Positions 12,714 to 16,718 of a DNA stretch of 64,000 bases are shown one piece after another. The notes under the pieces are model-generated. The model was not told the DNA's origin. It ran no database searches and saw only the letters and a program-made list of their open reading frames with translations. The position numbers and the translations under genes were made by a program. The stretch comes from Escherichia coli. GTDB lineage: Bacteria; Pseudomonadota; Gammaproteobacteria; Enterobacterales; Enterobacteriaceae. Every line of letters starts with the position of its first letter. The stretch's first letter is position 1. The stretch is taken from the NCBI RefSeq assembly GCF_009931435.1, contig NZ_CP043414.1; one strand, given 5' to 3'.

Positions 12714-13375
12714 ATGGGCAACGCAATGCACTCTCTTAAGACACTTTTAAAGTTACCTTGCGGATGGCGATGCAGTCGACAAATTATTAGCTCTGACGGT
12801 ATAACCCTCCATCTCCACGGAAAACGCAAAACAGCACAATGTCCTGAATGCTTTAAGCGTAGCGACTCTGTTCATAGTTGTCGTCGGCGCCGGATACAGC
12901 ATCTACCCTGCTCAGGGCAGACGCTATGGCTTGTATTTTCCGTCCGCCACTGGTACTGCCGTAACCCGGCTTGTTCACGTAAAATTTTTGCCGAGTCGCT
13001 TGCTCCCTTCGCCAGTTCACACCAGCAGTCTTCACAGGCGTTACAAAATTAACAACGTCAACTGGGATTAATAGCTGGAGGTGAGGCTGGAAAACGGGCT
13101 GCAACGGCAGCGGGTCTCCGTTGCAGTGCTGATACTCTTCTTCGCAGGCTTATCAATACCCCGGAGACGAAACAGTCAGGCGCGCCTCATGTCGGTATTG
13201 ATGAGTGGGCGTGGCATTGGGGCCACCGTTACGGTACGTTAATATTCAATCTTGATACTCACCGCCCCCTGGTCCTGCTTCCCGGCCGTGATCAGCGTAC
13301 GCTGGCGACCTGGTTCAGAAAAGGTCCGGAAATACAGGTTGTATCGCGTGATCGCAGTGGAGTCTATGCGACAGC
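12714..13375 (+). pseudogene. ISL3-family transposase remnant (zf-ISL3 N-terminus, frameshifted, 3' end cut by IS600)
   Basis: N-terminal CPEC...HLPCSGQ...RHWYCRNPACSRKIFAESL pattern; downstream frames encode GIDEWAWHWGHRYGTLIFNL and VSRDRSGVYATAE in shifted frames. Confidence 0.6.
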
Positions 13376-13648
13376 TGAGGTAGCCTGAGTTTAACGGACA
13401 CTCCTTCCTGAAATAGAATGGCATCAGAAGGAGCTAATAATGAGCAGAAAAACCCAACGTTACTCTAAAGAGTTCAAAGCCGAAGCTGTCAGAACGGTTC
13501 TTGAAAATCAACTTTCGATCAGTGAAGGCGCTTCCCGATTATCTCTTCCTGAAGGCACTTTAGGACAATGGGTTACCGCCGCCAGAAAAGGGCTCGGTAC
13601 TCCTGGTTCCCGCACGGTGGCTGAACTGGAATCTGAAATTCTGCAACT
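13376..13648 (+). mobile_element. IS600 5' fragment (left inverted repeat plus first about 69 codons of orfA), truncated by IS30
   Basis: Starts TGAGGTAGCCTGAGTTTAACGG...; orfA MSRKTQRYSKEFKAEAVRTVLENQLSISEGASRL... breaks at the IS30 end. Confidence 0.8.
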
Positions 13649-14869
13649 TGTAGATTCAATCTGTCAATGCAACACCCCTTTCAATTATCTCTTTCGGTGT
13701 TTTGAACTTCAGTGTCTTTCTCGGTCTGTTGTTTAGCTGAGCAGCAACCAGATCTAGTTCATGTTGAGTATATTGGGCAAGACATGTCTTTTTAGGAAAG
13801 TACTGCCGAATTAGCCCATTTGTGTTCTCATTTGTTCCCCGCTGCCAAGGACTCTGAGGATCGCAGAAGTAAACTTTAACGCCGGTGCTGACAGTAAATT
13901 CTAGATGTCTGGCCAGTTCCATTCCTCTGTCCCATGTCAGTGATTTTCTGAGTTCTGACGGTAAACTCAGGAATTTGTCGGTAAGAGCCTGATTTACTGA
14001 GACAGAATCTTTGCCCCTGAGTCTGAGGATGATCGTATAACGTGATTTTCGGTCTACAAGTGTGGCTATATGAGAGTTTTTTGTACCTGAGACTAAATCG
14101 CCCTCCCAATGCCCCAGAGAGCGTCTGTTATCGATATTTCGGGAACGTTCGTGAATTGGTGTTCCGTTCACTATGTTAATCGTACCTCTTTCGCCTTTGC
14201 GGGTATGACGCCTGCCATGGCGAAGGCTATGCGACCGTCGCAGATGCTGTATATTCAGGTGGTGTAGCGCTTCACGGCTACGAAAGTACAGCGTTTTATA
14301 AATTGTCTCAGGTGATATTCGCAGCGTTTTTTGACGTGGTTTTGTTCGCCTTAACCATCCTGATATTTGCTCTGGAGACCATTTCATCTCCAGCTTTTCC
14401 AGAACAAGCTTTCGCAATGGCAAATTTTGATCCAGTAAGCACGGTTTTGGCCTTTTCGCCATTCTGTTGGCTCGGTTATTAGCATCAACAGCTTTGTAAT
14501 AGCGTCTGCCCCGATTACGCTGAACTTCACGTGAGATCGTCGAAGGACTGCGATTCAGCGCAGTAGCTATCGCACGAATGCTCATTTTGGCTGACAAACC
14601 AGCTCGTATCTCCTCGCGCTCAGACAGTGTCAGGTGAGCTACAGCCCGCTTACGCTCATGGGGTTTTATGCCGCCAGTATCCCTTAACATAGTGAAGATC
14701 GTTCCGGGTTTTGAACCCAGGATATTCGCTATTTCACTGAAGCCTGTTCCGTTCTTCCATAGTTCAAAAACAGAGGCTTTTTCCTCTGCTGTAAATGTTC
14801 GTCTCATTCAAAAAACCTCCGCAACCCCATGTTTTCACATAACTGTTGCGTTGACCAATTGAATCTACA
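13649..14869 (-). mobile_element. IS30, complete (1221 bp) with terminal inverted repeats
   Basis: Ends tgtagattcaatctgtcaatgcaaca (13649-) and ctgttgcgttgaccaattgaatctaca (-14869); length equals canonical IS30. Confidence 0.9.
13656..14807 (-). CDS. insI: IS30 transposase (383 aa)
   Basis: MRRTFTAEEKASVFELWKNGTGFSEIANILGSKPGTIFTML... recalled IS30 transposase. Confidence 0.9.
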   Translation of the reverse strand: MRRTFTAEEKASVFELWKNGTGFSEIANILGSKPGTIFTMLRDTGGIKPHERKRAVAHLTLSEREEIRAGLSAKMSIRAIATALNRSPSTISREVQRNRGRRYYKAVDANNRANRMAKRPKPCLLDQNLPLRKLVLEKLEMKWSPEQISGWLRRTKPRQKTLRISPETIYKTLYFRSREALHHLNIQHLRRSHSLRHGRRHTRKGERGTINIVNGTPIHERSRNIDNRRSLGHWEGDLVSGTKNSHIATLVDRKSRYTIILRLRGKDSVSVNQALTDKFLSLPSELRKSLTWDRGMELARHLEFTVSTGVKVYFCDPQSPWQRGTNENTNGLIRQYFPKKTCLAQYTQHELDLVAAQLNNRPRKTLKFKTPKEIIERGVALTD

Positions 14870-15183
14870 GCGGCTTTTTTTAATATGTCCCGTTCGTCGG
14901 TAACCCGTTTCAGCTCTTTCTGGAGACGGCGGATCTCGGCCGGAGCATCTGACTGTTCTTTATTAGTGGAAGAATCCGGACCGTACTTCTTTATCCAGGC
15001 ATAAAGGCTGTGGGTGGTGATATCGAGACGTGTTGCAACGCTGGCAACAGAATAACCGCGATCAACAACCTGTTTGACTGCTTCAGTTTTAAACTCTTCG
15101 GGATAACGCTTACCGCTCATGGGCACTTCTCTTTAAGCCATCTTAAATGACTCTGAGGTGTCTGTTAAACCCGTGGCGATTCA
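14870..15183 (-). mobile_element. IS3-family element 5' fragment (terminal repeat plus orfA N-terminal 85 codons), truncated by IS30; specific IS not assigned
   Basis: orfA MSGKRYPEEFKTEAVKQVVDRGYSVASVATRL...ERDILKKAA ends at the IS30 junction; terminus (reverse complement) tgaatcgccacggg resembles IS3-group ends. Confidence 0.7.
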
Positions 15184-16172
15184 GTACAAAACACAACAAT
15201 AGCTTCATGATATATAAATACGTGATGACGAGTGGTACTCCGCATGGTTATTTAACTTCTCAGCACCACTAATGATCCTGAGCAACTTCGTATTTGGGCC
15301 ATTGCCATGGAGTAGAAAGCTGTGTCTGAGAATGCAGAATTTGAGAAAAGAATTAGCTTTCTTGGAGAGCTTCTGAAAATGGCACGCTAACAACGTTTTG
15401 TTAAAAAATGTGAATCACTTGCCGGGGCTGCATTTTCTATTCGAGGAGAATGTTGACGTAGATATTACAGAAATCTCAGCGCATCAGGATAAACTGCTAC
15501 CTTAGGTCAACCACCAAAAGAAAATACAATACGTCCAGTTTGTATGCCTTTAATAACACATCTTCTAAATGTTGAAGAATTATCCCGCCTGCTGAAGAAC
15601 GTTGCTCTGAGTGTGATAAACCTTTTTATTCTTGATGATGTCAGCGAGAAGATGGAATATATCCCCGACTGGGTCGTGGTTACCCGGTTAAACATCTGGT
15701 GGCGCTAATAAATCTGGCAGGTCACATTCTGTTGAATGCTGTGACAGTGCCTTACCGAGAGAGCGAAATTGTGGTGTTCTAGTGCATAGTCGCCACCATT
15801 CCGGATAATTCTATTGCGTTGTTTTACAAGTTCTTTTACAGCGCAGATCTGTCGCTGACGTTGAATCAATAGCCTGGATTTCAGAACACAATGCCTGTTT
15901 GCTGGTTGGTCCGGCAGTAGCATTAATTCATTATCTGAATGAAATGTGTCAATCCACAGAAACCGCTGTCAATGACGCATTTTGTCGGACGTTAACACGA
16001 GAAAGTTTGGCTATTCCGTAATGCCATCTTATTTCGTAATGGATTGAGAATGCTGGATTTTTAATTATATTACGCGCAGTATTAATCGCGTAAATGTTTT
16101 GCGGTCAGCAACGGTGGGGGATCCATTGTTCTGTTCAATGAATACCATCATACATTTGAATCAGGAGTCGGT

Positions 16173-16718
16173 ATGATGATTTTGGTGACGGGGGGCGCAC
16201 GGAGCGGGAAGAGTCGCCACGCAGAGGTGCTTATTGGGGACTCTTCACAGGTTCTGTATATCGCTACCTCGCAAATCCTTGATGATGAGATGGCTGCACG
16301 GATAGAACATCATCGGCAAGGCCGCCCGGAGCACTGGCGCACAGTGGAGCGCTGGCAACATCTTGATGAATTAATTCATGCAGACATTAACCCGAATGAG
16401 GTTGTGTTGCTGGAATGCGTTACCACAATGGTGACTAATCTGTTGTTTGATTATGGCGGCGATAAAGACCCTGATGAATGGGATTATCAGGCGATGGAAC
16501 AGGCGATTAATGCTGAGATTCAGTCGTTGATTGCTGCCTGCCAACGTTGCCCCGCAAAGGTTGTATTAGTGACTAACGAAGTGGGAATGGGGATTGTGCC
16601 GGAGAGTCGTCTGGCACGACATTTTCGTGATATTGCCGGGCGGGTAAATCAGCAGTTGGCCGCTGCGGCAAATGAAGTATGGCTGGTGGTTTCTGGTATT
16701 GGAGTAAAAATCAAATGA
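16173..16718 (+). CDS. cobU: Adenosylcobinamide kinase / adenosylcobinamide-phosphate guanylyltransferase
   Basis: 181 aa, [18 protein letters not shown]... P-loop. Confidence 0.95.

Follow-up and report, generated by a model that had tools for sequence, protein, structure and literature searches.

Putative relics of two insertion sequences and of two cobalamin biosynthesis genes upstream of cobU in Escherichia coli

Introduction

What occupies the roughly 1 kb of DNA in front of the vitamin-B12 salvage gene cobU in Escherichia coli, and does any of it serve cobU? We addressed this question in a stretch of 64,000 nucleotides from contig NZ_CP043414.1 (hereafter the window; positions are counted from its first letter), in which 15184-16170 separates a fragment of an IS3-family element from cobU. 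The initial annotation left this interval unassigned and offered two readings of it, decayed genes (possibly IS or island remnants) or the native upstream region of cobU. Lawrence and Roth (1995/1996) are said to have proposed that cbi genes were lost in the E. coli lineage and that cobUST was kept. On the evidence of sequence comparison, the interval appears to be a plus-strand mosaic of four relics (15184-16176), from left to right an IS66-family, an IS4-family, a cbiG and a cbiP piece. It would consist of two dead gene fragments derived from insertion sequences and two derived from the B12-synthesis operon.

Results

Reading frames in the interval are at chance level

The longest ORF listed for 15184-16170 encodes 72 aa (15705..15923, minus strand) and the longest on the plus strand encode 54-62 aa, in agreement with the earlier statement that no ORF exceeds about 70 codons; these are chance-level lengths. 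The maximum stop-free run in any frame was 87 codons, compared with 81 +/- 18 in 1000 composition shuffles, 32% of which reached 87. Since the longest stop-free run matches the shuffles, the scarcity of ORFs is what would be expected by chance for non-coding DNA. Two peptide fragments quoted in the initial annotation are both present in frame 1: SENAEFEKRISFLGELLKMAR at 15325-15387 (previously placed at about 15319-15388) and LSVINLFILDDVSEKMEYIPDWVVVTRLNIWWR at 15607-15705 (previously at about 15580-15708). The remark that such frames are without start codons stood only in part, as it fails for the second peptide, which lies inside a 54-aa ORF with an ATG (15544..15708); this ATG is not the ancestral gene start. 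An Rfam search of 14800-16500 gave no match to any RNA family at E up to 1, including the cobalamin riboswitch (RF00174) upstream of cobU, and no terminator-like sites were found in the interval.

An IS66-family relic is cut by an IS3-family end

The left boundary at 15184, as initially placed, is sharp. Direct reading of the sequence places the IS3-family fragment's outer terminal repeat at 15150..15183 (minus strand, TGAATCGCCACGGG...), with 15183 as its last base. The junction at 15183/15184 reads ...CGATTCA/GTACAAAAC, and homology to K-12 starts exactly at 15184. Immediately to the right, 15184..15243 (plus strand) represents the extreme 3' end of tnpB and the tnpB-tnpC spacer of an IS66-family element, colinear with two intact copies (L002 and L003), and is followed at 15244..15687 (plus strand) by codons 1-151 of the 511 codons of tnpC, which encode the N-terminal region with leucine zipper and zinc finger. 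By blastn, 15207-15686 is 72-73% identical at the DNA level to plasmid genes annotated as IS66 family transposase; in L002 the match begins just past the tnpB stop, 36 nt before the tnpC start. Residues 1-151 of the TnpC protein of this copy (511 aa) matched 15244-15687 in tblastn with E 4e-26. Both peptides mentioned above belong to this relic, the first to its leucine-zipper part and the second to its zinc finger (RCSECD...DVSEKMEYIP). The Pfam model zf-IS66 matched the frame-repaired peptide at E 0.0046 and 17.8 bits, under its cut-off of 27.3, and Pfam searches of the raw fragments found nothing except a weak zf-IS66 signal.

In IS66 elements (the pESBL3171-IncF copy, the S. diarizonae plasmid copy and ISEc8) the N-terminal region of tnpC and the tnpB-tnpC spacer are colinear with the relic. 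Compared with an intact IS66 element (tnpA-tnpB-tnpC), the relic keeps 151 of 511 codons and carries eight disabling lesions: four in-frame stops (codons 4, 24, 49 and 88, relative to the intact gene) and four frameshifting deletions (2, 1, 1 and 5 bp). Its homology is cut at 15184 and ends at codon 151 (~15687), and the site is without tnpA, tnpB, catalytic domain or ends; it is a relic, not an element. Because DNA identity is only about 72-73%, the relic is not a copy of the nearest intact IS66 found. RefSeq PGAP records leave it unannotated.

In K-12, the alignment with IS66 does not stop at the equivalent of 15184 but runs on leftward into the 3' end of tnpB. The IS66 relic was therefore truncated by the IS3-family end in the present strain, and K-12 shows the state without this truncation. 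The DNA to the left, at 12714-15183 of the window, is a dense pile of insertion-sequence remains, comprising an ISL3 pseudogene, an IS600-like orfA fragment (plus strand), an intact IS30 (minus strand) and another IS3-family orfA fragment (minus strand); the two IS3-family pieces that flank IS30 are mutually unrelated and point in opposite directions.

An internal IS4-family fragment follows

At 15681..15872 (plus strand), tblastn revealed an internal fragment of an IS4-family transposase gene of 64 codons (codons 166-228 of 445) with one in-frame stop. Frame 3 is 70% identical in amino acid sequence to annotated IS4 family transposases on plasmids (E 2e-21) and 71% identical to residues 166-228 of the protein encoded at L006 (E 9e-25), a 445-aa IS4-family transposase of the WP_001368890.1 type that occurs on E. 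coli virulence plasmids. Compared with this protein, the fragment has neither ends nor a complete catalytic domain and contains a stop codon. RefSeq annotates an 'IS4 family transposase' pseudogene here. The junctions with the IS66 relic (at about 15680) and with cbiG (at about 15873-15876) both lie inside the transposase gene, and the fragment has neither an intact ORF nor IS ends. Because neither junction is an IS end, both would have arisen from deletion rather than transposition. By blastn and tblastn, 15184-15872 carries homology to IS66 and IS4 transposases.

A cbiG relic is recognised through an ORF of pdu-positive Escherichia

To the right of the IS4 fragment, RefSeq records a pseudo-CDS 'cobalamin biosynthesis protein, missing N-terminus' (15878-16021). 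Here the window aligns with a 145-aa ORF found in pdu-positive E. coli, at 73% identity for amino acids (E 3e-27) and about 92% for DNA. Of this ORF it keeps residues about 90-139 with a 3-codon deletion; a stop stands at Gln140 of the ORF. In turn, the ORF aligns with positions 1-125 of NCBIfam NF004463, the model for CbiG (E 1.6e-19, 70 bits; cut-off 546), and it is 43% identical to residues 1-119 of Salmonella CbiG (E 2e-22). Compared directly with the window by tblastn, CbiG gave E 7.3, which is not significant, and the link to cbiG exists only via the 145-aa ORF as intermediate. Of all 17 Salmonella Cbi proteins compared by tblastn with the regions upstream of cobU in E. coli, CbiG alone gave a significant match. 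Pfam had no match to the 145-aa ORF, while protein database searches returned only Escherichia and Shigella matches for this ORF and only E. coli copies of itself for the 51-aa fragment.

The cbiG relic, defined via the 145-aa ORF, covers 15877..15937 (plus strand; about 20 codons, CbiG residues about 93-119), its 5' part being cut at the IS4 junction. It appears to be a gene fragment and not a member protein. The RefSeq pseudo-CDS corresponds to the cbiG relic plus the start of the cbiP relic described below. Reading this 'cobalamin biosynthesis protein' fragment as the 3' end of cbiP only was ruled out, as the parent ORF starts as CbiG (NCBIfam, tblastn); the cbiP-derived part was found further right than first assumed. 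The labels assigned automatically, 'IS4 family transposase' and 'cobalamin biosynthesis protein', are right but incomplete, the latter denoting a cbiG-cbiP fusion relic.

The two pdu-positive E. coli records examined (pocR-to-cobU at L005 4342-5305 and L013 1842-2805) display the order pduF, pocR, riboswitch, ORF, cobU, and in these two records the cobalamin riboswitch between pocR and the ORF is annotated by RefSeq, an annotation seen only in pdu-positive strains. E. marmotae (L011 5520-6568) and E. albertii (L009 5525-6435) have the same layout behind pocR, with an ORF of 144 aa. The ORF is open in the three species, with dN/dS of 0.32-0.40 compared with 0.02-0.11 in neighbouring genes. Constraint on it is relaxed, not absent, and a role as a leader ORF is conceivable in pdu-positive lineages; the idea is inapplicable to the present window, where the ORF is decapitated. 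Elsewhere in these loci, pduC of the E. marmotae genome is called as two ORFs of 212 and 329 aa and is probably broken there (L011 315-1968). In the E. albertii genome (L009 6436-7877) cobU and cobT are uncalled, the cobU start is CTG and not ATG, and the promoter-like region described below is shorter by 6 bp; decay of the salvage operon seems to be under way in that genome, with cobS and the cbiG' ORF remaining.

The sequence adjoining cobU is colinear with the 3' end of cbiP

Homology to cbiG stops at ~15937 (via L005) and protein-level similarity to cbiP starts at 15971, which leaves 15938..15970 (plus strand) as the zone of the cbiG/cbiP deletion junction. We conclude from these alignments that an ancestral deletion probably joined cbiG, at codon about 120, to cbiP, at codon about 440, with the junction within 15938-15970. 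The tail of the 145-aa ORF, like the DNA between it and cobU, would accordingly stem from cbiP. DNA alignment with Salmonella cbiP identified ~15971..16176 (plus strand) as a relic of the last about 60-65 codons of this gene, which encodes cobyric acid synthase. The relic has stops and frame changes, and its terminal TGA (16174-16176) overlaps the cobU ATG; this ATGA stop-start overlap is common to the relic and Salmonella.

When the 215 nt upstream of cobU were aligned globally with the last 200 nt of Salmonella cbiP, z was 6.8-7.9 for three Escherichia sequences. None of 1000 shuffles reached the score, and a reversed control remained at random level. The same alignment was weaker with Klebsiella cbiP (z about 3). 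The 31-nt block immediately before the cobU ATG is colinear with and nearly identical to Salmonella. Further colinear pieces are apparent in translation, namely NDAFCRTL (Salmonella: SDAFTRAV), NAILFRNGLRMLDF*LYYAQY*SRK (Salmonella: NGLRQSKGLAPLDSALEYARYKTRQ) and a C-terminal peptide corresponding to Salmonella TIMQQHQEPV*, the first two lying in other frames than the last. A frameshift-tolerant protein-DNA alignment of the CbiP tail gave z about 1 for Salmonella (not significant) and 3.6 for Klebsiella (moderate), and neither Pfam nor NCBIfam profiles matched the frame-repaired peptides of the tail. Because family profiles miss the tail, the assignment to cbiP rests on the comparison with close relatives.

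The cob operons of Salmonella and Klebsiella used here were taken from chromosome pieces mislabelled in a plasmid collection. Their gene order, pduF-pocR-[riboswitch]-cbi...-cobUST-ldtA, matches the Escherichia locus in order and position, and the cbiP stop overlaps the cobU start in these operons as it does in the Escherichia relic. Compared with them, Escherichia retains only cbiG codons 1-119 and about 65 cbiP codons, and the window is additionally without the riboswitch, pocR and the 5' two-thirds of the cbiG-cbiP relic. A literature search found no paper describing this cbiG/cbiP relic.

The cobU leader carries a candidate promoter

The cobU ORF (16173..16718) encodes a protein whose N-terminus is 90% identical in amino acid sequence to Salmonella CobU. 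By sequence reading, its ATG (16173-16175) is preceded by a Shine-Dalgarno sequence AGGAG at 16163-16167 (16163..16175 together, plus strand). About 100 nt upstream of the ATG, at 16044..16071 (plus strand), lies a sigma-70 promoter-like site, TTGAGA-16 nt-TATATT, with 10/12 consensus matches. In a consensus scan this was the sole promoter-like site on the plus strand, with none to the left of 16044; overall, two promoter-like sites were found in the region compared with 2.4 expected from shuffles, which is no excess. Four E. coli backgrounds have the site without any change, and its -35 hexamer is conserved in E. marmotae. More generally, 15985-16172 hardly varies among four very different E. 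coli backgrounds, and in comparisons between Escherichia species its conservation exceeds that of the cbiG part. All sampled insertion and deletion variants keep the promoter-like site, the shortest stretch shared by them starting at 16033.

We infer a promoter role for this site: the promoter, 5' UTR and ribosome binding site that would drive cobUST without a riboswitch most likely come from the former cbiP sequence near cobU. In the majority of E. coli, the functional control region of cobUST is probably confined to the final 140 bp or so, which is former cbiP coding sequence. No function is expected for 15184-15970. Two symmetrical elements were also seen in the leader, a perfect 7-bp inverted repeat (TTACGCG/CGCGTAA, 16070-16093) that overlaps the end of the promoter-like -10 hexamer, and an imperfect hairpin of 13 nt (16141-16183) in which the Shine-Dalgarno sequence is enclosed and the cobU start codon is paired. 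The predicted folding energy of the leader and of the cobU-start hairpin was no better than that of shuffles (z about 0).

The debris is widespread and has a counterpart in K-12

K-12 contains the same debris, annotated there as pseudogenes. Window positions 15184-15782 are 99.5% identical to K-12 MG1655 2067952-2067354 and share the same lesions, and identity is 98.2% from 15779 onward. K-12 yoeG (b4640) corresponds to 15244-15776, that is, to the tnpC relic and the left part of the IS4 fragment, and yeeH (b4639) corresponds to 15783-15869, the right part of the IS4 fragment. Between the two K-12 carries IS5H with a 4-bp duplication at 15779-15782, which is absent from the window. K-12 keeps more of the IS66 relic leftward, while the present strain is cut at 15184 by the IS3-family end. 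The edge of the cryptic prophage CP4-44 on the cobU-proximal side is drawn in the K-12 annotation at about 15917. A 2024 paper names the K-12 IS5 site 'cobU/yoeG' (PMC11677980).

Among complete E. coli genomes, many are 100% identical to the window over 15150-16172. Coverage of 80% or more of 15150-16172 was seen in at least 3163 of 5426 complete genomes, and the same coverage of 15700-16172 in 3710; genomes split by insertions, such as K-12, are left out of both counts. A further state, with similarity to the window from 15877 onward only, accounts for about 16% of records (843, in the 90-95% identity band). Several variants are interrupted or shortened. O157 strain 644-PT8 has an intact ISEc8 at the window equivalent of 15904 (L014 96-2408), and EC29 has an IS1 at the equivalent of 16033 (L015 1748-2445). 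In strain 38, which has no island and no IS debris, a tmaR-pduV' segment is fused at about 15985 (L004 7831-8188), the order being tmaR, a C-terminal pduV fragment on the opposite strand, and cobU. An independent deletion, with loss of pdu, pocR and most of the cbi relic, seems to be the cause. At least 140 bp upstream of cobU survive in each of K-12 (IS5), O157 (ISEc8), EC29 (IS1) and strain 38.

Intact copies of ISEc8, IS1 and IS5 (in K-12: L008 4160-5354) sit at different points within a few hundred bases upstream of cobU, none of them to the right of the equivalent of 16033. The zone upstream of cobU accumulates insertions. A copy of the IS66/IS4/cbi relic at 99% identity, followed by cobU, was also seen on NZ_CP126949.1 (L016 6001-7502), a 145-kb conjugative IncFIB plasmid of APEC O78:H4. 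A chromosomal chunk of the cobU locus has moved onto this plasmid.

Discussion

Each of the two readings offered by the initial annotation proved apt for one part of the interval. Decayed genes, in the form of IS remnants, account for 15184-15872, which holds the IS66-family tnpC relic and the IS4-family fragment. The native upstream region of cobU was a correct description of 15877-16172, ancestral DNA common to debris-free Escherichia, and this native part is itself decayed cbiG and cbiP sequence. We consider it highly probable that the interval is non-functional debris stacked before a short functional cobU leader and that it records a stepwise history.

Could the whole 1 kb instead be a native regulatory region, kept for control of the cobUST operon? 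It does lie directly upstream of cobU and is nearly unchanged in at least 3163 of 5426 genomes, but 15184-15872 shows homology to transposases from two IS families and is missing from E. marmotae, E. albertii and pdu-positive E. coli, where cbiG', pocR and the riboswitch are found. Relatives without the debris share only 15877 onward, which means that the region as a whole is not conserved non-coding DNA in IS-free relatives. Moreover, IS5, ISEc8 and IS1 insertions as well as deletions are tolerated anywhere left of 16033, and we give this explanation next to no credence. It is very unlikely, too, that the debris encodes a small RNA or a small protein, for example from the 54-aa ORF 15544..15708 or the 40-aa ORF 15899..16021. 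Short ORFs with start codons exist, and the related 145-aa ORF is open in three pdu-positive species with dN/dS of 0.32-0.40. However, the lengths of the ORFs are at chance, the ORFs are pieces of transposase or cbi frames out of context, and no plus-strand promoter-like site lies upstream of them; the Rfam search was without a match at E up to 1, and the K-12 annotation consists here of pseudogenes only.

The native part might alternatively be a distinct small gene, CbiG-N-like, that has always adjoined cobU, the likeness between the cobU leader and cbiP being coincidental. An ORF of 144-145 aa under some constraint in three species would fit such a gene, as would the failure of profile searches to find cbiP in the tail and the weak similarity to Klebsiella. 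Colinearity with the 3' end of Salmonella cbiP (z about 7, 0/1000 shuffles, the same ATGA overlap) nevertheless speaks against coincidence. The ORF also stands behind pocR exactly where Salmonella and Klebsiella have cbiA-cbiP, it is preceded by a RefSeq-annotated riboswitch in two E. coli records, and it aligns to CbiG from residue 1. We regard a distinct gene of this kind as very improbable, and favour the interpretation of a fused cbiG-cbiP relic.

From the identity, boundaries, lesions and distribution of the four relics we infer the following order of events. In an ancestor of the genus Escherichia, reduction of the operon for de novo cobalamin synthesis would have left about 120 codons from the start of cbiG fused to about 65 from the end of cbiP, immediately before cobUST. 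Mobile DNA may then have replaced the pdu-pocR-riboswitch side of the locus on the branch to most E. coli; the replacing DNA would have been the edge of a CP4-44-type island that included IS4-family and IS66-family elements. Later deletions, at junctions that are not IS ends, would have left IS4-family codons 166-228 and IS66-family tnpC codons 1-151, after which stops and frameshifts presumably built up in both transposase remnants. In the present strain, the IS66 relic would have been cut at 15184 by an IS3-family element, into which IS30 later inserted.

A bolder proposal, which we put forward as speculative and on balance doubtful, is that most E. coli, once IS and island debris had displaced the riboswitch, pocR and the 5' part of the cbiG'-'cbiP relic, came to express cobUST from a promoter generated by AT drift inside dead cbiP (16044-16071), and that in pdu-positive Escherichia the 145-aa ORF, open in three species with dN/dS about 0.35, is no plain pseudogene but a weakly constrained, riboswitch-controlled leader coupling B12 sensing to the translation of cobUST.

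The region as such is already known, through the K-12 pseudogenes yoeG and yeeH and the automatically annotated 'cobalamin biosynthesis protein' pseudogene. The reading of the latter as a cbiG'-'cbiP fusion and the recognition of the IS66 relic are refinements, not discoveries, and their importance beyond tidy annotation is little. The cbiG/cbiP relic fits the view attributed to Lawrence and Roth of cbi loss with cobUST kept. The interval would preserve well two successive losses in E. coli, first that of de novo B12 synthesis and then that of the riboswitch and pocR side of the locus, which gave way to mobile DNA.
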